A stretch of DNA of 64,000 nucleotides from an uncultured Pseudomonadota bacterium (GCA_963843375.1 CAWJKT010000011.1:256001-320000), one strand, 5' to 3'. Positions 22,599-48,649 are shown, counted from the first letter of the stretch. Numbers and translations: made by a program. The notes: generated from the sequence alone by a model not told the origin.

Positions 22599-22768
22599 CC
22601 GAAACCTCGGGGCTGAATTAGAAAGGCGATATTAACAGAAGCCCTTTCGCCTGAGAAGCCTTCTTCGAGCGTGGGGTTGGATCATTGGATATAATAGGAC
22701 TAGATGTCCTGAAAGACCTTCAACTGGTTTGTCCTCTTAGTCCCCATGGATGGTTCAGAAAGGCAGCA

Positions 22769-25700: not shown

Positions 25701-26035
25701 CAATGATGGTGGACGGCCTCATCGGGATCGCCCAACTCTTAAAGGAAGAGGGAGATGAACGGCAGGCGATCAGCTTTCTGCTTGTATCATTGAACCATCC
25801 GACCTGTCGGCAAGAAACCAAAGATAGGATCGTGGCCTTCTCGATGGAGCTTCAATCGCATTTTTCCGCGGAGGAAGTGGAGGGAGCCGTTCAATGGGCG
25901 AAGGCCTCAAGCATCCAGGACGTGGTGGCGGCTTGGTTATCTTCCCATAAAACTTCCCGACCCCTTCGAAGGAAAGTTTCCCGAAAGCGGAAGGCCGTGA
26001 AGAAATCCAGGACACAAAAACTAAAAAGAAAATAG
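22769..26035 (+). CDS. Degenerate class III cyclase domain + STAND/NB-ARC-like ATPase + TPR repeats (start uncertain, ORF opens at 22685)
   Basis: VFLFTEID, LRVSLHVGE, LKDLSEP; Walker A GPGGFGKT, Walker B LLVMDNFEH, LEGMPLGLEL, RHRSLRAVF, IHELL; TPR helices. Confidence 0.85.
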   Translation: MVFLFTEIDHESLFKERGTTEANHILACQHFLIEEILFSHSVQWMRRTSSGVLGIFEGGEPAKAAIALQKNFKSHLWDRFGKAGLRVSLHVGEAEAVGQKYVGPDFTHALKLLEAIRGSQILLTVPAVHFVPLPPGARLQDMGPHFLKDLSEPQNIYSLVHPDFNLETTDSPVSLQNYPQNFLPQGSPFFGREEEMEEIEKLLLHSPTQLITLLGPGGFGKTRLALQAAADLIEKFEDGVYVISLASLLSDQLMVGSIASAVKFLFYGAEDPKTQLLNHLKGKQMLLVMDNFEHVIQGSEWVEQMLKVAPRLKILLTSRESLGIDGEKVLEVKGLRYPVDGQIEGLEACSAVQLFLKSAHRVQPNFSLKPEDREQLLQICRLLEGMPLGLELSATWVPTLSLPQIAEKIESNRDFLATSMPHLPPRHRSLRAVFEYSWILLSEPQKKVLRGISVFKGSFMEQAARKVAGASENLLLFLTKKSLLRIRSNGRFEIHELLKYYAKEKLFDDHAEREKILNAHCFYFAQLMEKREGNLYGSSQKKVVEDLTEEIGNIREGWKRALTQLKEPEINSYLGALFFLFETKGWFREAQENFKTAAEGLSRKYADVSSMPKSAKALLARLKAYWGFFENLLGQPKIAQKLLEESLRLYQLAQTLKKAGFTYSALGIVNETQGHYEKAKTCYTKGYQAYHRVGDHYGIVWSLNNLGHIENRMGRHSRATDLVQKSLAYSLADKDLRSQAYSHNLLGDILHDVGHFKEARVHYQKGLSAYVEIGDRKGIAWSFHCLGHEAVIFGDYAGAREMFQEGMVISRDLGDSRAIAWSKGLLGQVCWATGDYPEALQLYSEALAEYRNLGDIRGEALIMDLTGNVRLAQKNDLEAERSYQLAYNLWSQEGANVLGRAWHLHHMGTVYVFRQNWKKAKAQFLESLRCFDLSREHLGQTVSLIRLGEVAFRQKAYGEARRRYQKAMRLALHSQLFPMMVDGLIGIAQLLKEEGDERQAISFLLVSLNHPTCRQETKDRIVAFSMELQSHFSAEEVEGAVQWAKASSIQDVVAAWLSSHKTSRPLRRKVSRKRKAVKKSRTQKLKRK

Positions 26036-30646: not shown

Positions 30647-33600
30647 GTGAAAACGTTTTTAAATAAAACAAAAAACCTAATTGTCCTGACATTGGCCTTT
30701 TTACCTATGTCGATTTCTCTTTCCTTTGGACAAAACGTCAATTCCGGTTCCCCCAAATACCCTTTTCCTCATGATGGCCAAATTCCTTACACCGTTACGG
30801 CAGGCATGCCCAACATCGACTCTCAAGCGGCCATGGATTCTTCCGTTTCGAATATGTACGTTTCCTGGTATGCCAATGCGGTTACGGCCGCCAGTTCCGT
30901 CTGTTCCGGGTGTCTTCGTGTTTACCGGAATACCAACAACGATGACACCGTGTCTGAAGGCATCGGCTACGGACTGTTGTTTGCCGTGGAAATGGCGGAC
31001 CAAACCCTCTTCAACGGGTTATTCAATTACGAACAGAGCTTTCTTGATGGCAATCATTTAATGAATTGGCAAATCACTTCGGGCGGTTCCGTGGAAAGTT
31101 CGGGCGCTGCTACCGATGCGGATGAAGATATTGCCATGGCCCTTCTGATGGCCAATACCCAATGGGGTTCGGCAGGCGCGATTAATTATTTGACTAAGTT
31201 CCAAGATCAGGTTGCTTATATTTATAACACTGAAATCGACAATGGTTCTAATTACGCGGTCTGGCCTGGAGACCAATATCAGTCTCCCTATTATTCCAGT
31301 TATATGGAACCCGCTTGGTACCGTTGCTGGGAAAGTCACGATACCTCTCATAATTGGAGCCAAGTCATCAACTGGGTTTACGGTACTTATTTCGACCAGA
31401 TCTATTCAAGTTATGCCACAGGGTTTATGCCCGAAACCGCGTCCGGGAGCCCCGTAACTCCGGATACCATGACTATGGGTTACGACGCTTCTCGTTACCC
31501 CATTCGTACTGGAATTGACTACCTCTGGAACGGAACTGCCGCCGATGGGGCATTAACTTATGTAGGGGCCATGGCAAAAAGCGTCACACAAGGGGAAGCC
31601 ACTGTCGGAAGCTGGCAGAACGAAATCGAATCTTATTGGAACATTTCTACCGGTGCGGCCACCGGCTCCAATACGGATGGGGTCCAGGTGGGTGGCGCGT
31701 TAGTGGCTATGATGGTGGCGGGAAACCAATCAGCCGCGAACACAGTTTGGCCCATGATCCTGCCGGGTTCGGGCCATGGTTTTATGGATAATGGTTTCCA
31801 ATATTTCCAGGACAGCCTTTGCCTTTGGGGGGCAATGGTGGGTTCGGGTAATTTCATCAACATGCCTTGTGGAGTTAATCCTTGCGGGTCGGTCGCTTGT
31901 ACACCGACTCCGACTCCCGTTCCTCTGAGTTGTTTCATGTTGTCTTCGCCTATGGAAACCGGCCAAAATTACAATGCTACTGACGGTTATTGGTTTACTT
32001 TCAGTTTCGCTTCCGTCAGTAACACTCCCGTAGCCACGCCAGAGTTAGCGACTGTCTCAGGTGCCGCCTCTATCATTGACGGAGTTGATGGGGGAGCTGA
32101 CGGCGATATCTATGCCGCTCGGGCTATTGGTGCTTTCGATATCAACGGTGGAACTACTCAAGTAGTTTATCCGCCCACGGGAACCACCAGCGCCTCTGAA
32201 ACCGTGTATGCCGGTTTTGCCCTCGGAACGGAACTCTCACCCGCGGGGGTGACCAGTGGTTACAATAATTTGGAAGATTTGGATGAAATTACTTTCTGGT
32301 GCAAGTCTTCCATTGGGGGGATGGTGGTTAATCCAAATGGAACGGCTCCCGCGACGGATATTTGGATGCGGATGAATTTTGTTAACCCGTATATCACAAC
32401 CGCCACTGGTGCAGGTTTAGTTGACTATTATGGATTTAATTTCGCAGTCACGGCGGCAAACACCTGGCAGCAATTCACCGTTCCCTTAAGCAGTATTACT
32501 AACCAAAACTGGGGAACTGGATCCCAACCGCCGGTCAGCGGAGGAGTCAGTTACGTTATGCCGACGGCACCCGGCGCGACGGTTGCGGCGCCTGCGGCGA
32601 ACGCCTTAAGCCAAATTTCCTCTATCGAATGGCAAACCGAAAGTAATACTGGCGCCACTTATCCCGTTTCTTTTACCTTTTGGATAGATCAAGTGTGCTT
32701 GACTTTTGAAAACGATAGTCCGACTCCCACCGTGGTTATTGTGAATACCGCCACTCCGCTTCCCACCGCCACGCCCGTGAGCCAACCCACGGGAACCCCG
32801 ACTGGAACGCCTACCATAACCGGGACTCCCACAAAGACGGTTACAAGTAGTCCAACAAATTCATCCACCTTCACTCTCACATCTACTGAAACCAATAGCC
32901 CTACGGCCACTCTGACAAACACTTTGACTAAGACCGCTACTGCGACGCCGACCTCTACCTTGACCTCCACGCCGACATTAACCGTTACCAACAGCCTGAC
33001 GGCGACTTCCACGAGCACTTCAGCCAGCACTTCGACCAATACGGTAACCACTACCGCGACGGGGACCACGACTAATACCGCTACCCGTACCGCCACCGCT
33101 TCACCCTCCTATACCCCGACAGCTACCCCCACTAATACCCTGACGAATACTTCGACCAATACGGCCACTTCCACCACTACCCGTACCACCACTGCCACAG
33201 CTACCAACACCGCCACTTCCACCATCACGCTGACGGCGACCAATACGGCTACCGGTACCGCCACCTCAACGACGACCAATACCGCCACTCCCACTATCAG
33301 CGATACGCCGACCTTGAGCCCCACGGGAACCATCTTGACCTCGACGCCTACCTCGACTCCCACCAAGACGGCCACGAGTACGGCAACCTTCACGTCCACG
33401 AATACCGGCACCAACACCGCCACGGATACGACGACCATGACGGCGACCAATACCCCGACCAACACGACGACCCAAACCCCGACCAAGACCGCCACGAATA
33501 CGGCCACCGGTACCACGACGAATACGGCGACTCAAACGACCACCTTGACGCCCACCAGCACCTTGGCGAACACCGCGACCAATACGGCTACTTCAACACC

Positions 33601-34855
33601 TTCAAGTACGGCGACGCTCACCACGACTTTCACGGCCACCACTACACCAACGAATACGGCTTCTTCAACTACGACGTTGACACCTTCAAGCACTTTCGCC
33701 AATACCGCCACGAATACGGCTTCATCCACGCCCACCAGTACCTTTGCCGAGACCGCCACCAACACCGCCTCCCTGACGCCCACGGCAAGTCTTCCCAACA
33801 CACCCATAAACACCCCAACCAGTACCCCAACCAACACGGCAACCGAAACCAGGACTTCCACACCCACCAACACCTTGACGAATACGGTTACCAATACCAC
33901 CACTTCCACATTCACCAATACCTTTGCCACTACGGCCACTCAAACCCCTACAGCCACACCTACCAATACCTTGGCGAATACCGCGACCAATACGACAACC
34001 GCTACGGCTGTTTACACCGCTACCTTCACCATCACCGTAACCGGAACACCCACTCAAGTGACGGTCCAGGCTTCGCAGGGAACGAGTCCTCCTTCGAATT
34101 CCACCCAAGTGGCGGGAGCTTCCAGCGTGACGATACAGCAGATCCAACTGACCAATCCGGGTACCAATGTGGTGACTTTAAGCAGTTTGACCCTGAGCGA
34201 ATCAGGGGTTCCGCCCACGGGGATCACTTCCATATCGCTTGTGGACGACGGAACGGTGATCTCCACCGCCAGTTTCAGTGGAACGACGGCGACCTTTAGC
34301 TTAACGTCGAGCAATACCATTCCCGCCAGCAGCGGGGCGGTGACTTATGAAGTGGTGGTGAACTTCTCCAGCAGCGCGGCGGCAGGGAACTACGCCTTCA
34401 GTATCACCAGCGGTGCGGGGAGCAACGGCGAGCCGGTTCTATTCGCCAATATGCCGGTTGGCGGGGCGACAATCACGATCGGTTCGGGGAGTACCACGGC
34501 GTCCGCGACACCCACTTCCACGCTTCAACCGGGTTCAACGCCCGTTGTATACCCGAATCCGGCGACAGGCACAGAACCGGTCACGGTGGCGGCGACAACG
34601 AGTCAGGCGTCAGATTCGATGACGGTGCAGGTCTTCACGGTGGCCTTCCGGGAAGTGCAGAACAACGAGTACTCCACTTCGTCGCCGGGCGTGACGGCTT
34701 CCGTAAGCAGCGGAAGTACCACCGCCAAGACATGGCGTATACCTTTGATCCTCAGTGACAAGTGGGGCACGCCCCTGGCCAGCGGCCTTTATTACGTGGT
34801 GATCTCCAACCATATCGGCTACCACGCGGTGACCAAACTCCTCCTTTTGCGCTGA
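30647..34855 (+). CDS. GH8 + CBM-like jelly roll + Thr stalk + beta domain + T9SS-like CTD
   Basis: DTVSEGIGYG, AATDADEDIA.ALL.A..QWG, YDASR; second domain with ITFWCK..WQQFTVP..FWIDQV; CTD 34541-34855. Confidence 0.9.
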   Translation: MKTFLNKTKNLIVLTLAFLPMSISLSFGQNVNSGSPKYPFPHDGQIPYTVTAGMPNIDSQAAMDSSVSNMYVSWYANAVTAASSVCSGCLRVYRNTNNDDTVSEGIGYGLLFAVEMADQTLFNGLFNYEQSFLDGNHLMNWQITSGGSVESSGAATDADEDIAMALLMANTQWGSAGAINYLTKFQDQVAYIYNTEIDNGSNYAVWPGDQYQSPYYSSYMEPAWYRCWESHDTSHNWSQVINWVYGTYFDQIYSSYATGFMPETASGSPVTPDTMTMGYDASRYPIRTGIDYLWNGTAADGALTYVGAMAKSVTQGEATVGSWQNEIESYWNISTGAATGSNTDGVQVGGALVAMMVAGNQSAANTVWPMILPGSGHGFMDNGFQYFQDSLCLWGAMVGSGNFINMPCGVNPCGSVACTPTPTPVPLSCFMLSSPMETGQNYNATDGYWFTFSFASVSNTPVATPELATVSGAASIIDGVDGGADGDIYAARAIGAFDINGGTTQVVYPPTGTTSASETVYAGFALGTELSPAGVTSGYNNLEDLDEITFWCKSSIGGMVVNPNGTAPATDIWMRMNFVNPYITTATGAGLVDYYGFNFAVTAANTWQQFTVPLSSITNQNWGTGSQPPVSGGVSYVMPTAPGATVAAPAANALSQISSIEWQTESNTGATYPVSFTFWIDQVCLTFENDSPTPTVVIVNTATPLPTATPVSQPTGTPTGTPTITGTPTKTVTSSPTNSSTFTLTSTETNSPTATLTNTLTKTATATPTSTLTSTPTLTVTNSLTATSTSTSASTSTNTVTTTATGTTTNTATRTATASPSYTPTATPTNTLTNTSTNTATSTTTRTTTATATNTATSTITLTATNTATGTATSTTTNTATPTISDTPTLSPTGTILTSTPTSTPTKTATSTATFTSTNTGTNTATDTTTMTATNTPTNTTTQTPTKTATNTATGTTTNTATQTTTLTPTSTLANTATNTATSTPSSTATLTTTFTATTTPTNTASSTTTLTPSSTFANTATNTASSTPTSTFAETATNTASLTPTASLPNTPINTPTSTPTNTATETRTSTPTNTLTNTVTNTTTSTFTNTFATTATQTPTATPTNTLANTATNTTTATAVYTATFTITVTGTPTQVTVQASQGTSPPSNSTQVAGASSVTIQQIQLTNPGTNVVTLSSLTLSESGVPPTGITSISLVDDGTVISTASFSGTTATFSLTSSNTIPASSGAVTYEVVVNFSSSAAAGNYAFSITSGAGSNGEPVLFANMPVGGATITIGSGSTTASATPTSTLQPGSTPVVYPNPATGTEPVTVAATTSQASDSMTVQVFTVAFREVQNNEYSTSSPGVTASVSSGSTTAKTWRIPLILSDKWGTPLASGLYYVVISNHIGYHAVTKLLLLR

Positions 34856-34986
34856 TTCCAAACGTCTGTTAACCCAATTATTTCAATATAAATCTGTTAT
34901 AAACTTGTTCAATTTTCAAAGTACATGAAGATTGTTCTCCAACCTTTAGATGCTCTCTTTTCTAATTTATAATCCCTCGAAGTTTT

Positions 34987-35002
34987 GTGAAACCGGTTTC
35001 AC
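34987..35002. promoter_or_regulatory. Perfect 16-bp palindrome, LacI/GalR-type operator candidate
   Basis: GTGAAACCGGTTTCAC upstream of the ECF sigma gene. Confidence 0.6.
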
Positions 35003-35139
35003 TCCTTTGAATTGGGCTTTAAGATTAGCCGGCGGTTGGCTTTTGAGGTCGGAAATAAAGAATTTCTTGTCATTTCATTTTCTAGGGTCCGAAATGGAAT
35101 ATTTCGGGTTGAAATGGCACTAAGTCATTAGGAGATCCT

Positions 35140-35709
35140 TTGGACGAGCGGGAACTGGTTGAACGGATCCTAAAGGGTGACGAAAAGGCCAAAACGGAGT
35201 TTTATCGGGCTTACCAGCAAAAGCTCTATGGCTTTTGCGTGTACTTCATGGGGTCCAACGACCCGGAAATTGAGGACATCCTTCAGGAAGCTTTTCTGGC
35301 TGCTTTCCAAAAATTAGGCCAGTTTGAGTTTCGTTCCAGCCTGGATACCTGGTTGACCCAAATCTGTATTCACCAATGTTACCGGCATTTCCGAAAGCGC
35401 GGCCGAATGGTGACCCAGGCTGAAGAGGATTTGGAGGAAAGGCTAAAGCCCCTTGCTTTGGAGACCGCCCAACAGGCGGACCGAGATTTGGAAAGGAAGA
35501 CGAGGATGGAAACCGTCGACCGGGCCCTGGGAAGCATGGGGGAACCTTGTAAAAAGATGCTCCAACTAAGAATGAAGGAAAGCGCAAGTTACATTGAGAT
35601 TGCCCGGGCGTTGAAAGTTCCCATAGGAACGGTTATGTCTCGCTTGGCCCGTTGCACGGCAGGGCTGAAAGAAAGGGTAGAGAAGATGTTGGAAGAGGGG
35701 AAGCAATGA
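35140..35709 (+). CDS. ECF sigma-70 factor
   Basis: AGGAG RBS + TTG; EDILQEAFL, FRSSL.TWL, SYIEIA..L.VPIGTVMSRLAR. Confidence 0.93.
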   Translation: MDERELVERILKGDEKAKTEFYRAYQQKLYGFCVYFMGSNDPEIEDILQEAFLAAFQKLGQFEFRSSLDTWLTQICIHQCYRHFRKRGRMVTQAEEDLEERLKPLALETAQQADRDLERKTRMETVDRALGSMGEPCKKMLQLRMKESASYIEIARALKVPIGTVMSRLARCTAGLKERVEKMLEEGKQ

Positions 35710-36362
35710 CAAACTTGGTGAATGAATTTTTCAACCGGAATTTGACCGAGGCCGAAGCTCAGAGTCTAGAAGAGCTTTTGGGTAATTCCCCCGAGGAAGC
35801 CATTCGGTTCGGGGAAAAAATGAAGCAAGAATATCTAGCCATGGGTCTGCCGATTCCCACGATTCCGAAAGATTTCGGACTCTCTCATCAGGTTCTTTCA
35901 CTGACCAAGTTGGCTTTGTTAGCAACCACCTTGTCACCAGTTATTCTCGTTTGGTCCCTGTGGCCTAAAACAACGTCCTGGAGATATCGCAAACTACAAC
36001 TTCGCCGCGCCAATGGAGAAAGTTGTGGTTCCCGCCGCCCTTTCCAGGCCAAAAACAATATTGCCGCCTCCGCCCCTATTAGATTCCCCAACGTCTGACG
36101 GGATCCTCGGTCTGAGGGAACCCGTTTGAGTGTCGTCGTTGAATTGGATAAACCTGCGCCGGTGGCAGTTTGCATCCTCGACCCCAAAGAGCAAACTGTG
36201 CGAACCCTTTACCAAGGAAATCTTTCTCCGGGGAAATGGTCAATCCATTGGGATGGGCTTCTATCCAACGGATCTCAGGCTCCTACAGGGGATTATCGTA
36301 TCTGGGTTAAGTCCGGAACGACCGAGATGTCCAAAAACGTGAGTATTGAAACGGGAAAATAG
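35706..36362 (+). CDS. Putative anti-sigma factor with TM helix and C-terminal FlgD-like Ig domain; reading frame disrupted ~35970-36110
   Basis: ATGA overlap with sigma; N-terminal LTEAEAQSLEELL, TM helix, Pro-rich linker in a shifted frame, then VRTLYQG.L.PG...I.WDG...NG..AP.GDY. Confidence 0.7.
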
Positions 36363-36415
36363 GTTATCATTTCCACGCTGTAGGTTATGAATAGGAAGAG
36401 CCTTCCGGGAATGTT

Positions 36416-37825
36416 ATGATTTTGCCGGGGGCATCCATGCGGCCGTCCGGCTTATCAAAATTCATAATTCCTTTTGTCTTCTTAAACCGATACAAGACCT
36501 ATCCTCGAAGAGGATTTTGGGCTTTATTTTGGTTTTTTTTCTTGGGCTTCGCCGAGTTTTTAGGGGTTTTCTTGCCGATGTCTTTTTCTGCCACGACTTC
36601 TTTCGCGCAAACGGTGACGGGAACAGCGAGCCTGGCGGCACCTTTAGAAAATCTCGAGGGCTCAGCCCGGGATTTGGCCCTGGGGTCAGCCTTTGTGGGC
36701 GTGGCCGACGATACCTCCGCCCTTTTCTTCAACCCTGCGGGACTTTCGGGTTTAATAAACCCGGACATTGCCATTCATCATAACAGTTATCTGGCGGGAA
36801 CTTTTCAAGAAACACTTACAGCGGGTTTCCCAGCCGGGAATCTGGGAGGATTGGCTTTTGCTTTGGATTATGTGGGTTGGGGGAGCCTTGATCTCCGGGA
36901 CGCCTTTGGTGTGTCCGAGGGAAGCTTCAACGATAGCGACGTGGGTTTTACTGCGGGCTGGGGTATGGAATGGTTCCCCGGTTTTTCGGTTGGCTTTGCC
37001 TTGAGAGGACTCCAACAGAAAGTTGTGAACGATCTTTACACCAGCTTGGCGGGGGACGCAGGACTCCTTTGGTTGGCGCAAAAAAATTTCCGCCTGGGCA
37101 TCTCTTATCTTAATTTTGGCACCCCGGTGGCAGGCAGCCCGCTTGCGGGTGAATTAAATGGCGGTGGATCAATTCTTTTCAACCTAACTCCTCATTCCAC
37201 CCTTATGTCGGCTTTGGAGGGATCTTGGACCCCAGGAGGAGTTGGTTCTGCCCAAGCAGGATTGGAAGGGGTTCTGGATCGTCAATGGGCATTGAGGTTG
37301 GGATACCAGCTGCCATTTTATGACAACCAAATCGATGGTCTAACCGGGTTTACCGCTGGCGCCGGTCTTAAAATTTCAGCTTTTGCTATAGATTATGCCT
37401 ATCTTCCCTTTGGCAGTTTGGGGACATCCAACCGCATTAGTTTAGCTTACCAATTTGACCTGCCTAAGGAAGTGGTAAAGGTAACCGTACCCGTTCAAGT
37501 GCCCGTGACGGTAGTTCAACCGGCTCCCGAACTCCCGGGCAAAGATGTTGAAGTTCATTTCAAAATCTCTACCGATCCCCTTGCCAAAGGACAGGAATTG
37601 GAAAAAGAAGGTAAACTGAAAGAAGCTATTGGGATTTACGTAGAAGGTCTCAAGGCAAATCCAGCCGATGATCTTCTTTGGCAGGCACTCGCCAATGACT
37701 ATTACGTCCTGAATGAAAAAGCCTATGCCATTGAGTGTTTTGAAAAAGTTCTCCAATTGAAGCCGGATAATCAGGCTCTAAAGGATTGGCTGGAGAAGTA
37801 CAAAGGATCAACGGTTTCGAATTGA
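36416..37825 (+). CDS. PorV/PorQ-like (FadL-type) outer-membrane barrel with C-terminal TPR (start uncertain)
   Basis: SARDLALGSAFVGVADDTSALFFNPAGL, LRLGY, GFTAGAG, IDYAYLPFG.LG..NRISL; TPR AIECFEKVLQLKPDN. Confidence 0.8.
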   Translation: MILPGASMRPSGLSKFIIPFVFLNRYKTYPRRGFWALFWFFFLGFAEFLGVFLPMSFSATTSFAQTVTGTASLAAPLENLEGSARDLALGSAFVGVADDTSALFFNPAGLSGLINPDIAIHHNSYLAGTFQETLTAGFPAGNLGGLAFALDYVGWGSLDLRDAFGVSEGSFNDSDVGFTAGWGMEWFPGFSVGFALRGLQQKVVNDLYTSLAGDAGLLWLAQKNFRLGISYLNFGTPVAGSPLAGELNGGGSILFNLTPHSTLMSALEGSWTPGGVGSAQAGLEGVLDRQWALRLGYQLPFYDNQIDGLTGFTAGAGLKISAFAIDYAYLPFGSLGTSNRISLAYQFDLPKEVVKVTVPVQVPVTVVQPAPELPGKDVEVHFKISTDPLAKGQELEKEGKLKEAIGIYVEGLKANPADDLLWQALANDYYVLNEKAYAIECFEKVLQLKPDNQALKDWLEKYKGSTVSN

Positions 37826-37847
37826 AGGCGGCACAAAGAGGTTTTTA

Positions 37848-39227
37848 ATGTTTTGGACGAAAACAATTCTGTCTTTTTCGTTTTTGGTTTTTTTGTGTTT
37901 GAGCTTTAGGACAGATCAAGCGCAGGGCCAAACTGCCACGCCCTCACCTACGGCCACTTCCGTGGTCTTGTCCTCTGCATTCCTGAACCAATCTTCCCCT
38001 TCCACGGTGGTGACGGGAGGACAAGTGGTCATCTATAACCTGGCCTATGGAAACACGGGGATTCCCGTGACCACATTGGACACCTTTGAGACCGATACAG
38101 TTGGAGGAATGCCAGCCAGTTGGGTTACCTATGGTGGCGCATCAGGAACGACCATTACCGAAACGGTTATCAGTGGAGCCGAATTCAATGGTCCAACCGC
38201 CCCGGGAAATCAATCTGTGTCGGTAGTTTATCCTTATGGTTGTACGAGTTTTTGCGGCCGTTTGGATTACACGGGTGCCGGACCAGTGACCGATGGTTCG
38301 ATCCAGGCGGATTTTTATTTTCCCAATTCGGGAAACGCGGCGGCCTTAATGTGGCGAAACGATGCCGTGGATGATCAATATCAGGTGACGGTTTCCCAGG
38401 GAACCAGCAACAATATAAATTTGGTGGTCCAGAAATCGGGCAGTTTTCAAATCCTCACCACCGCCAGCGCTAACATCAACACCAGCTCATGGATCACTGT
38501 CAAATTAGCAGTGTCGGGCGTGAACCCTGCTCTATTGACGGCTTATGTAAATGGAGTTCCAGTTGCAACGGCAAGCACCACAGTCCAATTAGCGCCCGGA
38601 TTTTCCGGAATCCAGGTACAAGGATTGTCGACAGTGATTTTTGACAACGTCCAGGTCGTCCAATCGCCGGATTTTGATAACGTGAATCTGCTGGATACTT
38701 TGCCAGCCGGATTGAGCTATGTTACGGCCACTGGAAGCCCGTCGGTCACAGAGCAAATCGTCAATTGGAACTTGGGAAGTTTAGTGGCGGGTTCAGCCGG
38801 GACCGTCCAAGTCGCCGCGACGGCCAATAACTGCGATAAGACTTTCACTAACTCAGCCCAATTGGATTTGGGTGCCCCCCCGGGATCGGTTACTTCCAAT
38901 CCGGTGACCACTTTGGGGGTCTGCAGCCCAACCCCCACTCCCCCGGCACCCGGCAATCAACCTTATGTATACTCCAACCCGTCCAGCGGCCCTACGGTTA
39001 GTTTCGTCTATAACATGGGGGAAAGTGGAAAGGCCGATATCCGAGTGTGGAACGCTTCGGGAGTTCTGGCGGCCAGCCTGGAGGACACGAAACCTGCCGG
39101 AGTCCAACAAAGTGTCCTCAATATACAAACCTTTGCGCCCGGGCATTATTTTTACCAGATAGACTTAAAGTACGATTCGGGTCAGGAGGATCGTTTTAAA
39201 CCCTCCGTATTGGCAATCCAGAAATAA
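37848..39227 (+). CDS. Exported protein: DUF11-like Ig domain with an inserted lectin-like domain, plus a second CTD variant
   Basis: Signal peptide; VIYNLAYGNTG..NVNLLDTLPAGLSYV..VNWNLGSL..TNSA; C-terminal VYSNP..IRVWNASG..APGHYFY. Confidence 0.7.
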   Translation: MFWTKTILSFSFLVFLCLSFRTDQAQGQTATPSPTATSVVLSSAFLNQSSPSTVVTGGQVVIYNLAYGNTGIPVTTLDTFETDTVGGMPASWVTYGGASGTTITETVISGAEFNGPTAPGNQSVSVVYPYGCTSFCGRLDYTGAGPVTDGSIQADFYFPNSGNAAALMWRNDAVDDQYQVTVSQGTSNNINLVVQKSGSFQILTTASANINTSSWITVKLAVSGVNPALLTAYVNGVPVATASTTVQLAPGFSGIQVQGLSTVIFDNVQVVQSPDFDNVNLLDTLPAGLSYVTATGSPSVTEQIVNWNLGSLVAGSAGTVQVAATANNCDKTFTNSAQLDLGAPPGSVTSNPVTTLGVCSPTPTPPAPGNQPYVYSNPSSGPTVSFVYNMGESGKADIRVWNASGVLAASLEDTKPAGVQQSVLNIQTFAPGHYFYQIDLKYDSGQEDRFKPSVLAIQK

Positions 39228-39430
39228 GCTATTTAATTCTAGTTTTTAAGCTGAAAACTCCATAAATGAATACTTTCTTCGATTTTTTCTTAGGGATTGA
39301 GTGATAAATCAAAAAAAAATCGGAAAAGAGGGAATAAAACCATCTAGTTTTGGATCAAAGATACGGGAGACTCTATCCCGTCCAGCTTTGACGAGCGGGA
39401 ATTCCAAAAAATAACGGATGGCGGCGGAAA

Positions 39431-42400
39431 TTGAAATTTTCTGTTTGTGCCCTTAAAAACGGTTTAAACCATTTATCCTCGAAATTAACAGGATACGCCC
39501 GATTTCTTGGATTCCTATTCCTTCTCTTATTACCCTCGCATTCCCAAGCTAATGTTCCCGGTGGCGGCACTGGCACCGGGGCTAATGTCACGGTTACGAC
39601 CAACGGCACGAACGTTACCCTGGCCAACGGCATTGTCTCTTTTGTCATCGACACGACCAATGGGAATATCACTAGTTTCATTTACAACGGCGTAGACCTT
39701 TTGACCGGAGGCGATGGCGGAGCCGGGGGATATTTTTACTACGACAACTCCGGCGGACCTGTTCTGACGAATCCGGTTTATACGCTGACCGTGAACCCCG
39801 CGAACAACGGAGGCGACCAGGCGGAAGTATGGCTACAGTCGACGGAAAGCCCCATGGACATGGCCGTCTATTACGACATGTTGCGTGGACAACAGGGTAT
39901 CTATGATACGGTGATCTTCACTCATGAGGCCAGCTACCCCGACTATCCGGGAGCTGAACTGCGTTCCGATATGTACGTGGGCTCCATTTTTGACTGGCTG
40001 GTCGTGGATCCCTATCGTTTTCGCCAGATGGCGTCGCCGACTGACACAACGGTGGCCGTGCCAGGCGCGCCCCGGAAGTAATGCAGTGGACCAGCGGAAT
40101 CTATAACGGATTCACGAATTGCAAGTATTCCTACAGCGCTCCTTTGGGAGAACTCAACACCTGGGGCTGGGCTTCCTCAACTACCAATTACGGGATCTGG
40201 CAGACGGTCCCCAGCCACGAATATAACGACGGTGGACCTCTTCACCGGGAGCTCACCGAGCATATCGGTAACACGCTGCTGAACATGTTCGGGGGCGATC
40301 ACTACGGTTTCGGTTCCACTCAGGATCAGCCCGCCGGCACTTTCTCAACCAAGACCTTCGGTCCGGCTTTTATTTACCCCAATCAGTACACAGGTTCCTC
40401 CAGCGATCCGGTTTCCTTGAAGGCCCAGGTTCTTTGGGCCGACGCACAGGCGCAAGCTGCCGCCGAACAAGGCGCCTGGCCCTACACTTGGTTCAATCCC
40501 CAGCCGGTGGCCGGAGCGGCTTCTAGCGTTGTTTATACCCAGGCATCCGGCCGCGGTACAGTGAGCGGCAACCTAGCCATAAGCGACCCCTATAACCCGG
40601 GTATCTCGCCTGTGAGCATCTGGGTTGGATTGGCCCCGCTTGACGGTGGGGTGGATTTCCAGCAGCAATACCTGACCTACCAGTTCTGGGTTCAGACGGG
40701 ATCGGGTGGCAGTTTCACCATCCCCAACGTGCTGCCGGGCACCTATAACCTCTGGGCCTTCGGCTCCGGTGTTGTTGGAACCTACGAAGACGCGAATATC
40801 ACAGTGACCGCAGGCCAGTCTCTGAACCTGGGGACTCTCACTTGGTCGCCTCTGCGTCTGGGACCCACGGTGTGGGATATTGGAATTCCGGATAGGGATT
40901 CGAATGAATTCAACGGCGGGAACCATGACGTGACTCCCTATAGCGGTGTTCTTCCGCCCTTTGCGGGTGGAGCGCCTTACGACGTTCCGGCGACTTGGGG
41001 GGCCTTCATGGCCTATCCGGCCTTGTACCCCAACGGGGTCAGTTTTGTTGTGGGGACAAGCAACTATGCCACGGACTGGAACTATTGCCAACCGACCACA
41101 GCCGTCGTCAATGCAGGCGTTACAACCTACAACGGGTCGAGCTCCAGCATTTATTTCAACATGGCTACTGCGCCAACGGCGGCGCAAACGGCCCGACTTT
41201 ATATCGCCTTCGCCTCTGCCTTTAGTTCGGCCTGTATTCTCACGATCAACGGGACAATCCAAACCGGCACGGTCATGGGCTCCACAGACGGTACCTACAC
41301 TGCAATCACCAACCCGGCTACGGGCTTCTATCCGCCCAACTATGGCTTTGCCTGCATAGTTCGCCTGGGTTCCCAGGGCGCCTGGGGGGACGCCTACCTG
41401 GACTTTCCCGGAAACGACCTGAAGGCGGGTATGAACGAGATCAACATCGGCATGCGTCCCACCGGCACGGCCGCCAACGGCGATGGCTTTGAATATGATT
41501 ATGTACGGTTGGAATTAACGGGCTTCCAGACGCCCACCCCCACACCTTCAGGTTCCACTCCCACGAATAGTCCCACATCCACCATCACGGTCACGAGAAC
41601 TAATACGCCTACGAACAGTCCTACGTCCACGTCCACAATGACTGCGACCAATACCGCCTCTTCAACCGCCACGGCGAGCCGAACTAATACCGGCACTAAT
41701 ACTGCCACCAATACGGCGACTTACACCCCTACCCCCACGGCCTCGAATACAACCACCAAATCAGCAACTTCAACACCCACCAGTACTTTAACGAATACTA
41801 TGACCAACACAGTCACCGCATCCGCCACCAGTACCTTGACGAATACTTCCACCAAAAGCCCTACCCCAACCATCTCTAATACCGCCACCCCCACGTCTTC
41901 TTCGACGCCTATTAACACAACTACTAACACTGCCACTATGACTGCTTCGGAAACAACCACCGAGACCGCCACTAGTACCTTGACGAATACCACCACCAAA
42001 AGCCCTACCGCCACCGCCTCCAACACGGCCACCCCCACGTCTTCTTCAACGCCGACTAACACACTGGCGAATACGGCGACTCAAACAGCAACGGCCACGC
42101 CTACCAATAGCTTTGTTAATAGTGCCACTAACACTGCTACTTCTACTTTTTCCTCTTCCACTACGAACACACCCACAGAAACCGCTACTAGTACATTCAC
42201 GAACACAACTACCAACAGCGCCACCGCAACCGTCTCAAACACTGCCACCCCAACCACTTCTTCCACGCCTACCAATACCTTAGCCTTTACTGCTACCAAT
42301 ACAGCTACTGCCACTCCAACGAGTACTTTGACCGATACCGCCACAAACAGCGCTACCGCCACTGCCTCGAATACGGTGACTAAAACGACAACTTCGACCA

Positions 42401-43332
42401 CGACTAATACATTAGCCAATACCGCCACTCAAACCGCTACGGCAACAGCGACCCATTCCGTAACGAATACCCCCACCTTTACGACAACCCCTACGGCGAC
42501 TTATACGCTGACCTCCACCTTTACGTTAACCACGACCCCCACGGAGGTGACGGTCCAAAGCTCCCAGGGCTCCAATCCTCCCATTAACTCCACCCAGGTC
42601 CCGGGTGCGGCGGGAGTCACGGTCCAGCAAATCCAGTTAACCAATCCGGGAGGGAATACGGTCACTTTGACCAGTTTAACTCTGACGGAGACGGGGGCGT
42701 CCCCTTCAGGGATCACTTCGGTGTCACTGGTGGACGATGGAACGGTTGTGTCTTCCGCCCCATTCACTGGTTCAACGGTGATCTTTAGTATTAACAATAC
42801 GATTCCCCCGAGTAATGGGGCGGTGACTTACGAAGTGGTGGTGAACTACTCGAGTAGTGCGCCAACTGGAAGCTATCAGTTCAGCGTAACAGCAGGGACC
42901 GGAACGAACGGCGAACCGGTGCTTTTCAGTGGTTTACCGGTGAGTGGAGCGACGATCACAATTGGTCTTGCCACTCTGACGCCTACCTCCACCGTGATGG
43001 CAACCTCCTCGGCTACTTCGACAGCGACCCTATCGGTTACCCCGACTCCGCAGGCCACTGTGATTGTGTATCCAAATCCAGCGACGGGTCCAGGACCGGT
43101 GACGCTTCAAATTTCTTTGGGAGCGCCCGCATCGAAAGTGACGATTGAGGTCTTTACTTTGGCCTTCAGGAAGGTGAATGAGATTAACTTGTCGAATATC
43201 CCAGCGGGCACCTTGGATGTGACCTTGCCTTTAACCGATAGGGGCGGGATCCCCCTGGCTAACGGGCTCTATTACGTCGTGATCCAGACACCCCAAGGCA
43301 GGTTTATCACAAAGCTCCTAATTATTAGATGA
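39431..43332 (+). CDS. PL4 rhamnogalacturonan lyase + Thr stalk + beta domain + CTD, 1-nt frameshift near 40072
   Basis: VTLANGIV, CKYSYS, EYNDGGP, RGTVSG, YQFWV..FTIPNV.PGTY.LWAF, VWDIGIPDR, DWNYCQ, YDYVRLE; adding one C gives GAPPEVM. Confidence 0.87.
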
Positions 43333-45588: not shown

Positions 45589-45841
45589 CCGTCGCTGATA
45601 TTCCAAAAATCCCACTCCGTTTATTTTCATGTCTTTCTCTTCCTCATCGCAATCCGGAACCTCGATTTGGTTTCACCTAACAACAGACTGTAAACTCAAC
45701 GAAACAACCCTGAAATAGTTTCGTTCTTTCTGCATTGAAATCATCTGAATTGTGGAATAAAACTCACCTCATCTTGCTCTAAGTTATGGGTGCTCCCGCA
45801 TAGTTCCGTTTTGAAGAACGGAATCCATTCGAGGCGAAAAA

Positions 45842-48649
45842 TTGAAAAAAAATCAAAACGTTTTCGGATCGATCCGGATTTACCGAGCACTTGGTTTCTC
45901 ATTATTTTTTTACGCCGCCGCCGCTTCGAGCCAAACGATCACGATCACTTCCGCACCCTATAACGCCACAACAGGAATCGCCGATAACGCTGCTGCCATC
46001 CAGGCCGCCATCAATGCGCTGGGAACCGGTGGGACGGTTGTTGTGCCAAGCGGAACTTTCCTGAGCGGACCGCTTACCCTCAAAAGCAATATGACCTTTC
46101 AGCTTTCCGCCGGCGCGACCCTGCAGATGACAGCCATGGGCACATTTCCAACGAACACTGATTTTCTTTATGCTTCCAAGCTCACGAATATCACCATTAA
46201 CGGTAGCGGGGTTATGGACGGGCAAGGCGCCGCTTGGTGGACTGCTTTTAACGCAAGCAGTTCAGTTGAAAGGCCACCCGCTATGATCGAAGTTACCGAC
46301 TGTACGGGAGTAACTGTGACGGGGATTACTGTTCAAAATTCTCCGGAATTCCACATCCAATTTCTGGGTACGTCCTCTAATGTGCTGGCTTCGGCCTTGA
46401 GTATCACAGCGGCTTGGCCCTCGCCCAACACGGATGGAATCGATTTGCGAGGCACCAATATTAATATTGAAAACTGTTTTATCAGTGATGGTGACGATCT
46501 TGTCCAAATCGGAGGTTCGCAGTTGTCCTCCGGAGTGACGGTTCAAGGCTGTACTTTCGGAACTGGCCATGGGCTTTCCATCGGCAGTATTACTTCGGGC
46601 GGGGTAAGTAATGTAATGGTTACTAACTGCACCTTCAACGGAACCCAATACGGTATCCGTCTGAAATCGGACCGAACCAACGGCGGAGTGGTATCTAACA
46701 TCACCTATTCCAACATCACGATGAGCAATATCATGGTGAATCCCATCTTGTTCTACAGTTATTATCCCACCATTCCTTCTAGCCCGGCTACGGATACAGG
46801 TTCAACCGTTACCAGCACGACTCCTTTTTGGAACGATGTCAATTTTGAAAACATTACGGCCAGTGAAGCCACTACCTCCACCGCTAATACGGGAATCATC
46901 TGGGGTGTGCCGGAAGCCCCTGTTTCTAATGTGTTGTTTGACGCCTGTACGCTGACCGGCTCGAAAATTTTCGAAGTTTACAATACACAAGGAGTGACAT
47001 TTGATTGTAACTGCCTGATTAACGGGTTGGCTCCTTCAAACACCGCGGCGGTCACTACCTATAACGAAACTTTGGCGGGACCGGATGATGTCCAGTTTCC
47101 TGCCTGCAGTTCGAACCCGACGCCGACTTTTACCAGAACGTCCACCCCCGTTCCGGCGACAAACACTCCCACCCACACCTTTACGTCTACTCCCACGGAT
47201 ACCCCTACCGAAACTCGTACCAATACTTTGATGCCACCTACGGCCACTAGAACCAACACCCCCATCAATTCGACCAGTTTCACCCCTAGTGCCAGCGCCA
47301 CTTCAACGCCTACTCCTACGTTTACGGGTACCGCCACTCGCACGAGTACAACCACGCCGACGGCTTCGGCCACATTCTCTTCAACGGATTCCACAACACC
47401 TACTAAAACTGCCACCTATACCCCTTCCAGCACGGCTACCTTCTCAGCAACACCGACGGGAACCTCTTCCCCGACCTCTACGGCCTCTTCAACAGTTACA
47501 TCCACGGAGACTCCTACCCGTACCATTACACCCATGAATACCCCGACGTCTTCTTTAACCCCTTCCACCACAATGACCCCTTCAAACACCGAAACTCTGT
47601 CGTCCACTGTTACCCCTTCCATAACGGCGACGCCGACTTTAACTTTTACGTCTACCGCCTCCAAAACACCATCCCCGACGATCACTTCAACGGTTACCGC
47701 AGTTTCTACCGCCACCTTCATTTTCACGGCCTCTTCCACGGCCAGCAGTTCTGCCACGGACAGCCCATCGCTCACGGCGACCCGCACGGATACGCCGACA
47801 AGTACATCCACATCCATCTTCACACCAACTTTTACGGCTACTCCGACGGTTACGAATTCGATAACCGCTACTGTTACTTCCAACTTTTCCTCCACGGAAA
47901 CGCTGACATCAACCGTAACTTCGACTCCTTTCGTGACAATGTCAGTGACCTCTAGCCCAACTTATACTTCCACCGGTACGGCCACTTCCAGCCCGACTCC
48001 TTCTGGAACACCAACTATGACTCCCACGGTAACCCTAGTGCCGCCGAATACGTCCACCGAAACGGAAACCCCAACACTTACCGTGAACCCAACTTCAACG
48101 GCAACCTCCAGTCATACCACCACAGCCAGTCCGACAGCTTCGATGACATCCTCCCCTACGAATACGGGAACTGCGTCAGCCTCCTCAACTCATACAGCCA
48201 CCCTGACATCGACTTTCACAAACACCCCCACGCCTTCCTTCACGCAAACATCCACTTCGACGGCTTCGACGACACCGACCTTTACTTTTAGCGCGACCGT
48301 TACTATCACAGTCGTGGAAACAAGTACGCCAGCCACCACGATCACCTCCACGCATTCACCTACACCGCCGGCCACGGTGATTGTCTATCCCAATCCGGCG
48401 ACAGGGGCCTGCGAGGTGACTCTCCAGGTTTTCCTGGGTTCGCCCGCTTCGAAGGTTACCATTGAAGTTTTTACCGTGGCTTTCCGAAAAGTGAATGAAA
48501 TGGTTTTGTTCAATGTCCAAGCGGGAATCAGTGATATCGCCCTGCCCCTGATGGACAAACAGGGAACACCTCTCGCCAATGGACTTTACTATGTCCTTAT
48601 TCAAACGCCCCAGGTGCGGGAAATAGTTAAACTACTAGTTACTCATTAA
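45842..48649 (+). CDS. GH28 polygalacturonase-like + Thr stalk + CTD
   Basis: SPNTDGID, DGDD, GHGLSIGS, IRLKS; CTD 48377-48649. Confidence 0.92.
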   Translation: MKKNQNVFGSIRIYRALGFSLFFYAAAASSQTITITSAPYNATTGIADNAAAIQAAINALGTGGTVVVPSGTFLSGPLTLKSNMTFQLSAGATLQMTAMGTFPTNTDFLYASKLTNITINGSGVMDGQGAAWWTAFNASSSVERPPAMIEVTDCTGVTVTGITVQNSPEFHIQFLGTSSNVLASALSITAAWPSPNTDGIDLRGTNINIENCFISDGDDLVQIGGSQLSSGVTVQGCTFGTGHGLSIGSITSGGVSNVMVTNCTFNGTQYGIRLKSDRTNGGVVSNITYSNITMSNIMVNPILFYSYYPTIPSSPATDTGSTVTSTTPFWNDVNFENITASEATTSTANTGIIWGVPEAPVSNVLFDACTLTGSKIFEVYNTQGVTFDCNCLINGLAPSNTAAVTTYNETLAGPDDVQFPACSSNPTPTFTRTSTPVPATNTPTHTFTSTPTDTPTETRTNTLMPPTATRTNTPINSTSFTPSASATSTPTPTFTGTATRTSTTTPTASATFSSTDSTTPTKTATYTPSSTATFSATPTGTSSPTSTASSTVTSTETPTRTITPMNTPTSSLTPSTTMTPSNTETLSSTVTPSITATPTLTFTSTASKTPSPTITSTVTAVSTATFIFTASSTASSSATDSPSLTATRTDTPTSTSTSIFTPTFTATPTVTNSITATVTSNFSSTETLTSTVTSTPFVTMSVTSSPTYTSTGTATSSPTPSGTPTMTPTVTLVPPNTSTETETPTLTVNPTSTATSSHTTTASPTASMTSSPTNTGTASASSTHTATLTSTFTNTPTPSFTQTSTSTASTTPTFTFSATVTITVVETSTPATTITSTHSPTPPATVIVYPNPATGACEVTLQVFLGSPASKVTIEVFTVAFRKVNEMVLFNVQAGISDIALPLMDKQGTPLANGLYYVLIQTPQVREIVKLLVTH

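Follow-up and report, generated by a model that had tools for sequence, protein, structure and literature searches.

We analysed a 64,000-nucleotide stretch of DNA from an uncultured soil bacterium (GCA_963843375.1, CAWJKT010000011.1:256001-320000; hereafter the window), which carries a compact module of four genes. They encode a sigma factor of the extracytoplasmic function (ECF) type, a membrane-anchored anti-sigma factor that ends in a FlgD-type immunoglobulin-like (Ig) domain, an outer-membrane barrel of the PorV/PorQ family with a tail of tetratricopeptide repeats (TPR), and an exported partner protein whose C-terminal domain (CTD) resembles type-A CTDs of type IX secretion systems (T9SS). 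A preliminary description, made from the sequence alone, had pointed to these genes as a possible secretion-coupled signalling module, and coordinates and domain matches confirm both the four genes and their tight spacing (Table 1). All four lie on the plus strand; the sigma and anti-sigma genes overlap by 4 nt, and gaps of 53 nt (anti-sigma to barrel) and 22 nt (barrel to partner) follow. A run of secreted carbohydrate-active enzyme (CAZyme) genes surrounds the module, comprising glycoside hydrolases (GH) of families GH5, GH8, GH53, GH28 and GH30 and a polysaccharide lyase (PL) of family PL4, and their products carry CTDs. The module is real, conserved and present in several paralogues. It is a new variant of trans-envelope ECF signalling, with its key contact inferred.

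Table 1. Positions of the module genes, their diagnostic domains, the promoter-like sites and the putative target gene in the window.
Feature	Position	Strand	Details
ECF-type promoter-like site GGAATA-N18-CTAAGT	35096..35125	+	14 nt before the TTG of the sigma gene; GGAG follows
ECF (group 4) sigma-70 factor	35140..35709	+	189 aa, TTG start; Sigma70_r2, TIGR02937
Anti-sigma factor	35706..36362	+	single-pass, C-terminal FlgD-type Ig domain; TGA-interrupted as assembled
FlgD_ig periplasmic domain of the anti-sigma factor	36099..36362	+	PF13860; Ig-like beta-sandwich
PorV/PorQ-family barrel with TPR tail	36416..37825	+	469 aa; NF033709, TPR_2
Exported lectin-like partner with T9SS type-A-like CTD	37848..39227	+	459 aa; signal peptide, ConA/LamG-like region, DUF11
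Module-specific type-A-like CTD of the partner	38940-39224	+	own-subfamily hidden Markov model
ECF-type promoter-like site GGAATA-N19-CTAAGT	45754..45784	+	58 nt before the GH28 gene
GH28 polygalacturonase-like secreted enzyme, FlgD_ig-type C-terminal domain	45842..48649	+	putative regulon member

Because this set of genes is found again in paralogous and orthologous copies, the module is far more than a chance association. Four modules are present in this genome, the one in the window and three on contigs designated C12, C16 and C6 (G, C, L and f numbers denote genomes, contigs, loci and families). The C12 copy runs sigma, anti-sigma, a PA14+CBM9+CTD protein and barrel-TPR, and the C16 copy, of the order that we call type C, runs 130-aa CTD-only protein, barrel-TPR, sigma and anti-sigma. 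At C6 (G000:C6:199860-203402) the sigma and anti-sigma-FlgD parts form one 652-aa open reading frame (ORF) with no stop between them, adjoining a barrel-TPR gene; this copy lies immediately downstream of flagellar hook genes. Of 24 further genomes in the same taxonomic family, 23 were matched when the anti-sigma of C12 was used as a query. A profile built from 21 anti-sigma sequences found full-length relatives in all 30 sampled genomes of that family (candidate division FCPU426), with 1-11 in each, and outside it in G069 of family f14, where a complete module is present (L067); a divergent form occurs in G013 (L068). Over the rest of the phylum (99 genomes searched overall) it was mostly the Ig domain alone that matched, in other proteins. 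A narrower profile of five sequences returned seven loci, all from one lineage. In a profile search of 1.84 billion representatives, 285 clusters were matched at E <= 1e-30; full-length proteins (200-300 aa) predominate among the 150 clusters listed, the others being large proteins with multiple FlgD repeats.

We then annotated 40 loci around full-length anti-sigma matches with hidden Markov models (HMMs) from the four modules of this genome. A sigma gene adjoins the anti-sigma gene in all 40, a barrel is present in 35, and a module-type CTD protein stands next to the barrel in 34 of those 35. Three gene orders occur (~6 loci of A, ~18 of B and ~12 of C), and the linkage has therefore outlived rearrangement. 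The loci nearest to the window copy (L027, L028, L015, L026, L029 and L030) are the same for the anti-sigma domain, the CTD and the barrel, and the parts of the module therefore duplicate as a unit. Both the synteny and the paralogy that the preliminary description had proposed as checks are thus borne out. A scan for sigma-70 promoters and terminators over 34800-39500 returned counts at chance level and says nothing on operon structure.

The sigma factor belongs to the ECF superfamily by its matches to TIGR02937 (sigma70-ECF; 87.7 bits, cut-off 42.9) and Sigma70_r2 (54.5 bits, cut-off 24), with Sigma70_r4_2 under its cut-off (21.9 versus 25.7 bits). It passes no equivalog model, the best being PRK11922 at 103.8 against a cut-off of 204. 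Its same-genus orthologue is 91% identical.

The anti-sigma gene is interrupted as assembled. An N-terminal ORF (ATG at 35706 to TGA at 36098) and a FlgD_ig ORF (36126-36362, 78 codons) lie in the same reading frame and are parted by only one TGA, at 36096-36098. From its N-terminus the protein comprises a short cytoplasmic domain, a single transmembrane helix (~35905-35965), a linker rich in proline and the FlgD-type Ig domain; its first 130 residues gave no Pfam or NCBIfam match. Paralogues and the copies of relatives share this layout and are intact as single proteins, of 227 and 263 aa for the paralogues in this genome and of 204-290 aa for paralogues and orthologues overall. The linker is scrambled over 35971-36109. 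Relative to the same-genus orthologue it carries +2, +8, +1 and +1 bases, and the orthologous peptide can be read only in other frames, while the domains that flank it are 85-91% identical to the orthologue. The frame was checked on contigs of near-identical DNA from four public runs of three studies, aligned to 35600-36500. These contigs share six indels and several substitutions relative to the window, A36078T among the latter. A single base is absent at 35971, 35974, 36083 and 36109 in all four runs; a T is inserted after 36004, and a base is absent at 36362, in the stop codon, each in three runs with the fourth uncovered at the site. When these differences are applied by script, an uninterrupted anti-sigma of 217 codons results, and its linker then matches the orthologue. 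Recoding of the TGA, as for selenocysteine, was rejected: TGA is an ordinary stop here, since it terminates 692 of 1731 ORFs longer than 900 nt, and the public contigs remove the stop.

It is accordingly very improbable that the anti-sigma is a true pseudogene in this genome, with a constitutively active sigma or a decaying module. Such decay would agree with the in-frame TGA and the displaced linker, and stops are found within the copies of two relatives as well, a single in-frame TGA in G017:C29:3743-4360 and a single in-frame TAA in G018:C110:9117-9875; these could be errors of metagenome-assembled genomes or occasional decay of a paralogue. The four public runs, however, contradict the window at every covered linker indel and restore the ORF, and the flanking domains have kept their identity to the orthologue. 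On these sequence comparisons the anti-sigma is a genuine single-gene type and the lesion, either an assembly error or strain-specific decay, is confined to this assembly. The FlgD part is neither a separate gene nor a fixed pseudogene. The indels against the public-run contigs cluster at 35971-36109, with one more at 36362, and further frame breaks in this assembly may be artefacts too.

The Ig domain at the end of the anti-sigma is a member of FlgD_ig (PF13860; 46.6 bits against a gathering cut-off of 27, E 3.4e-12), and its profile matches FlgD structures at 8.6e-12. The AlphaFold2 (AF2) model of the domain (predicted local distance difference test score, pLDDT, 86.7) finds the FlgD hook cap as its best Foldseek match (E 1.7e-4, query TM-score (TMq) 0.63), followed more weakly by the T9SS CTDs of PorZ, NucA and PorU (E 8e-3 to 2e-2). 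With hhalign the domain aligned to the CTDs of the CAZymes of this genome at 92.9% (E 3.7e-7) and to the CTD of the module at 82.9%. Only the core 64 columns take part in the match; the CTDs' YPNP motif and final strand fall outside it. Por_Secre_tail did not match the domain in the Pfam and NCBIfam scans, and we do not class it as a type-A CTD. The preliminary description had called this domain CTD-like; the homology to the CTDs of the genome upholds that name, whereas the nearest fold is that of FlgD and the YPNP motif and last strand are missing.

The barrel is placed in the PorV/PorQ family by NF033709 (111.5 bits, cut-off 90) and stays below the cut-offs of the PorV and PorQ equivalog models NF033710 and NF033711 (PorV, 37.4 versus 250; PorQ, 89.2 versus 220). 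Its sequence profile reaches PorV (6h3i_F) at 5e-12. The AF2 model (pLDDT 79.3) has 14 strands, with the barrel at about residues 117-346, and resembles the solved PorV structures as a FadL-type barrel; the best Foldseek matches are PorV chains from translocon complexes of the T9SS, 8gl6_F (1.3e-14, target TM-score (TMt) 0.64) and 6h3i_F (4.4e-13, TMt 0.66), with FadL-type transporters next. A disordered linker of 33 residues (353-385) leads to five confident helices, about 2.5 TPR (388-464; ~37577-37807), which TPR_2 matches at 30.6 bits against 27. The tail distinguishes these barrels from others of their family. In this genome it is present on 4 of 4 sigma-linked barrels and on none of ~15 other PorV-like barrels (~19 in total), and across the annotated loci on 32 of the 33 barrels whose C-terminus falls in the locus. 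Complex prediction of barrel-TPR residues 64-469 with the Ig domain, each entered as an alignment, scored 0.17/0.18 against a mark of 0.32, a result that counts neither way.

The partner in the window matches DUF11 (29.9 bits, cut-off 24.6) and, under threshold, Laminin_G_3 (19.2 versus 27.6), Por_Secre_tail (18.9-22.5 versus 27) and TIGR04183 (21.4 versus 23). Its CTD, judged by profile searches, is a distinct subfamily, because the module CTD HMM finds only three proteins in this genome, all of them module partners. Por_Secre_tail (PF18962) matches 31 of 35 module CTDs, with a best E of 4.1e-8, and the genome's two highest scores with this model, both above the cut-off, belong to the CTDs of the C16 and C12 paralogues; hhalign aligns the module CTD to the CAZyme CTDs across its entire length at 90.2%. 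The heads of the partners are varied. In a survey of 25 partner proteins, PA14+CBM9 was found in eight, DUF11 in four (two of these with Laminin_G_3), NHL/SGL propellers in three, pectate lyase+malectin in two, and an SBBP propeller and DUF5122 in one each. One long protein had Por_Secre_tail/CHU_C only and one was without any family, and five were short (119-161 aa) and extended barely beyond the CTD, Por_Secre_tail being matched in four of them. Going by these family assignments, the predicted heads are glycan-related, enzymatic or absent.

A SprA-like protein of ~2000 aa is encoded in this genome and SprA-like matches are present in 4 of 4 near-complete relatives, in each case under the curated cut-off. 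The PorU search returned no catalytic match, only CTD-like C-terminal ones. GldM (in this genome) and GldL (in the four near-complete relatives) were not matched, in searches that had no positive control for either protein, and GldK gave partial generic matches only, in two of the four relatives. Export of the CAZymes apparently uses a T9SS-like system of non-canonical type, which has a SprA-like pore and numerous PorV-like barrels.

The sigma gene and the GH28 gene are both preceded by promoter-like sites of the same kind (Table 1). The GH28 product matches Glyco_hydro_28 at E 3e-55 and FlgD_ig at 8.8e-6. The strict pattern has these two sites in the window against 0.01 expected; genome-wide it has three, roughly as many as chance would give in 8 Mb, and only one of them lies outside the window. 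The sigma-upstream site, with its GGAG, is kept in all 6 orthologous loci displayed, and in 48 kb of the same-genus genome G001 there are only two sites, one ahead of sigma and one ahead of the orthologous GH28 gene. In other paralogue groups the site at this distance from the sigma start reads GGAATAA-N15/16-CACT(A/C). A combined pattern found 33 sites in the 40 loci, against 2 for the reversed control, and 21 of the 33 lie directly before sigma genes; for seven of the other 12 a neighbouring ORF (169 to >1000 aa) begins no more than 150 nt away, and five have no called downstream ORF of at least 100 aa. In type-C loci the sigma-type sites face the sigma gene and its divergent neighbour, and none faces the CTD-only and barrel genes, as is expected if those genes are inputs. 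A loose genome-wide expression for the promoter was discarded as poorly specific (66 sites versus 28 in the reversed control), and the strict pattern alone was kept for the regulon. The GH28 pectinase gene is, from its upstream motif, an apparent target of the sigma factor, and the module probably switches on plant-cell-wall-degrading enzymes.

Two further sites were noted. Beside the type-C module of this genome, three GGAATAAA-N-TCACTATA sites at G000:C16:24640-26306 stand ahead of divergent genes, one for a thioredoxin-domain protein and the other for an unknown of 494 aa, next to an M12 peptidase; these divergent genes are likely regulon members of that paralogous sigma. Upstream of the PL4 gene, 39331-39361 contains the same GGAATAAAAC -35-like element as before GH28, with a poor -10 element (10 of 12 positions), and may be a weak or differently read promoter.

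Taken together, we favor, at a probability of about one half, a trans-envelope module akin to cell-surface signalling in which the PorV-like barrel takes the place of the TonB-dependent transducer. The partner, with its glycan-binding head and dedicated type-A-like CTD, would be exported and held by the cognate PorV/PorQ-family barrel, whose C-terminal TPR tail would hang in the periplasm. The anti-sigma would cross the inner membrane once, its long Pro-rich linker displaying the CTD-like Ig domain on the periplasmic side. Whether the barrel-partner complex has bound a glycan, or has its CTD engaged, would then be relayed through the TPR tail to the Ig domain, and the ECF sigma, once freed, would transcribe the operon that encodes it and nearby genes for secreted hydrolases, here that of the GH28 pectinase. 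In the PorV-type fold both barrel termini are periplasmic. The relay is compatible with the topology because of this placement and because long flexible tethers carry both the barrel tail and the Ig domain. To judge from the partner heads and the CAZyme targets, the signal may be an extracellular glycan. It may alternatively be the occupancy of the CTD or the secretion load, by analogy with PorA of Porphyromonas gingivalis (discussed below) and in view of the CTD-only partners and the CTD-like anti-sigma domain. The preliminary description had the module report cargo or substrate status; that part of the proposal is weakened by the partner domains (CBM9, PA14, malectin, LamG and pectate lyase) and the GH28 target, which make an extracellular glycan possible in its stead.

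Several observations weigh against this barrel-mediated signalling. Every protein contact in the relay is inferred, the regulon is based on motif conservation alone, and the organism is uncultured. The nearest solved fold of the Ig domain is FlgD, not a CTD, and the domain has neither the YPNP motif nor the last strand. The CTD-only partners of type C have no sensing head and are a poor fit to glycan sensing, and the C6 paralogue has a barrel with no CTD partner. In L046 a sigma/anti-sigma pair stands alone amid housekeeping genes, and no barrel lies within ~7 kb; a barrel was likewise undetected in L035 (near a contig end), in L040 (which continues into a giant gene) and in both L048 and L050 (whose neighbours are unassigned). 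Finally, orders A and B place the barrel and partner genes downstream of the sigma promoter, where they could be mere outputs.

This last point leads to the main rival, an unlikely one, according to which the sigma/anti-sigma pair senses through the Ig domain itself and the barrel and CTD partner are a co-regulated secretion or anchoring pair; candidate signals would be CTD proteins that fail to be exported, stress on the envelope or an oligosaccharide in the periplasm. The position of barrel and partner 3' of an autoregulated promoter in orders A and B agrees with it, as does the stand-alone pair L046. It is also favored by CTD-protein/PorV-like-barrel pairs that have no sigma gene. In L071 (3-1928 and 5190-7711) and L072 (4469-8457), both from other FCPU426 families, a protein with a C-terminal FlgD/CTD-like domain is followed by a PorV-like barrel without sigma or anti-sigma, and this genome has a sigma-free pair at C14:130873-133904; the pairs suggest that cognate cargo-barrel genes are a general theme of phylum FCPU426. 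A purely output role of the barrel leaves unexplained, however, why the TPR tail is restricted to sigma-linked barrels (4/4 versus 0/~15 in this genome, and 32/33 in the loci), and why the type-C barrel and CTD-only genes are placed upstream of, and outside, the sigma-type promoters.

A second rival is closest to the specific form given in the preliminary description, and we consider it rather improbable, more so than the first. Here the CTD-like domain of the anti-sigma would compete with real CTDs for the barrel, the TPR tail or the SprA-like translocon, and cargo load or export failure would set the sigma, as a hard-wired analogue of PorA-PorY-PorX-SigP. The homology of the Ig domain to the cargo CTDs of the genome (hhalign 92.9%) is in keeping with such competition, and so are the type-C partners that barely exceed a CTD (119-161 aa; 130 aa in this genome) and the SprA-like protein. 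In P. gingivalis the PorA CTD is described as a periplasmic ligand for PorY, at a step upstream of the ECF sigma SigP, and it still activates PorY when tethered to the inner membrane (PMC12152298). The same source describes an intact last strand as required for PorA function (PMC12152298), whereas the anti-sigma domain lacks the terminal strand along with the YPNP motif. Glycan-binding heads on most partners, and an apparent target that is a pectinase gene and not a secretion-machinery gene, also argue against it.

The preliminary description had named three outcomes that would speak against its proposal, a gene order that is not conserved, a FlgD part that is a separate gene or a true pseudogene, and a lack of interaction. 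The first two came out in its favor, the synteny being conserved and the FlgD part lying in one gene, and its interpretation is partly supported overall.

The barrel-mediated module can be set against known systems. Cell-surface signalling is exemplified by FecI/FecR/FecA and by the ECF-sigma/anti-sigma/SusC-like transducers of Bacteroides polysaccharide utilisation loci. As in these, an ECF sigma is paired with a single-pass anti-sigma whose periplasmic end faces a co-encoded outer-membrane barrel, the sigma is autoregulated, and the apparent targets are adjacent genes for glycan-degrading enzymes. The barrel of the module, in contrast, is a 14-strand PorV/FadL-type barrel in place of their 22-strand TonB-dependent transducer, and its periplasmic extension is a C-terminal TPR tail in place of an N-terminal signalling domain; a FecR domain is missing from the anti-sigma (its N-part gave no Pfam or NCBIfam match), and a TonB link is not evident. 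The module proteins are not members of the FecR or FecA types. Attachment pairs are also known, PorV with cargo CTDs, PorQ with PorZ and PorV with PorU, and PorP/SprF-type barrels stand beside genes of type-B CTD cargo. The module is like the PorV/PorQ pairs in its PorV-like fold and in placing a PorV-family barrel beside a protein with its own CTD subfamily, the genes often overlapping, and unlike them in that its barrel fails the equivalogs and in the TPR tail and the sigma/anti-sigma linkage, which are not known from those proteins.

The closest characterised analogue is the PorA-PorY-PorX-SigP pathway (PMC7712824, PMC12152298). As described there, a T9SS CTD serves as periplasmic signal in a pathway with an ECF sigma at its end, and PorA binds PorV (PMC7712824, PMC12152298). 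Small CTD proteins resemble the CTD-only partners of type C. The receiver in P. gingivalis is a histidine kinase and the output T9SS genes (PMC7712824, PMC12152298), whereas the module has a CTD-like domain built into the anti-sigma, a co-encoded PorV-like barrel-TPR, and hydrolase genes as its apparent output. The four-gene module includes no kinase or response regulator; a genome-wide search for them was not made. The SigX/CfrX/CmpX/OprF system of Pseudomonas aeruginosa, as presented in PMC7826278, is likewise an ECF operon with an outer-membrane protein suspected in regulation; its protein families are unrelated, with no CTD or PorV-type parts in that account. Neither FlgD nor PorV occurs in the main text of this ECF classification paper (PMC7826278). 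The literature searched describes no ECF/anti-sigma pair coupled to a PorV-like barrel, in line with the preliminary statement that no characterised example was known to its author, although the PorA CTD/PorY/SigP pathway is a precedent for part of the idea (PMC12152298).

Other features in the neighbourhood were recorded. The PL4 rhamnogalacturonan lyase gene (39431-43332) consists of two overlapping ORFs in different frames, split at 40081, with the Rhamnogal_lyase N-part in the first and fn3_3 plus a FlgD_ig-type CTD in the second; the split may be an assembly indel, as in the anti-sigma linker. Upstream of the CAZyme run, 22685-26035 encodes an NTPase of the STAND type (NB-ARC/AAA_16) that has 1116 aa and numerous TPR repeats; its orthologue in the same-genus relative is 80% identical. 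Several Val/Gly-rich ORFs of 135-141 aa on the minus strand at 32689-34320 lie antisense to the part of the GH8 gene that encodes a Thr/Pro-rich linker and were rejected as genes, being by-products of repeat composition.

In its fullest form the proposal is that a recruited PorV-family barrel serves an ECF cell-surface-signalling system as its outer-membrane transducer, that the TPR tail of this barrel reads or competes for the CTD-like Ig domain of the anti-sigma, and that engagement of the barrel by its own CTD-bearing glycan sensor, or by a CTD-only reporter, sets hydrolase transcription. This would be a TonB-independent system made of T9SS parts, with 1-11 insulated channels per genome, outside Bacteroidota. 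We hold this complete version tentatively, at somewhat less than even odds. If it is true, there would be a second architecture for cell-surface signalling, one that needs no TonB-dependent receptor, and PorV-like barrels and CTD-like domains would gain a regulatory role beyond secretion. The PorA-PorY result makes the idea of a CTD as signal timely, and the module would be its hard-wired counterpart. The modules also make up a family of sigma/anti-sigma/promoter sets, probably orthogonal, with recognisable promoters of the GGAATA...CACTA and GGAATA...CTAAGT types. For the uncultured soil and peat phylum FCPU426, the module suggests how a large arsenal of secreted plant-cell-wall hydrolases is controlled.

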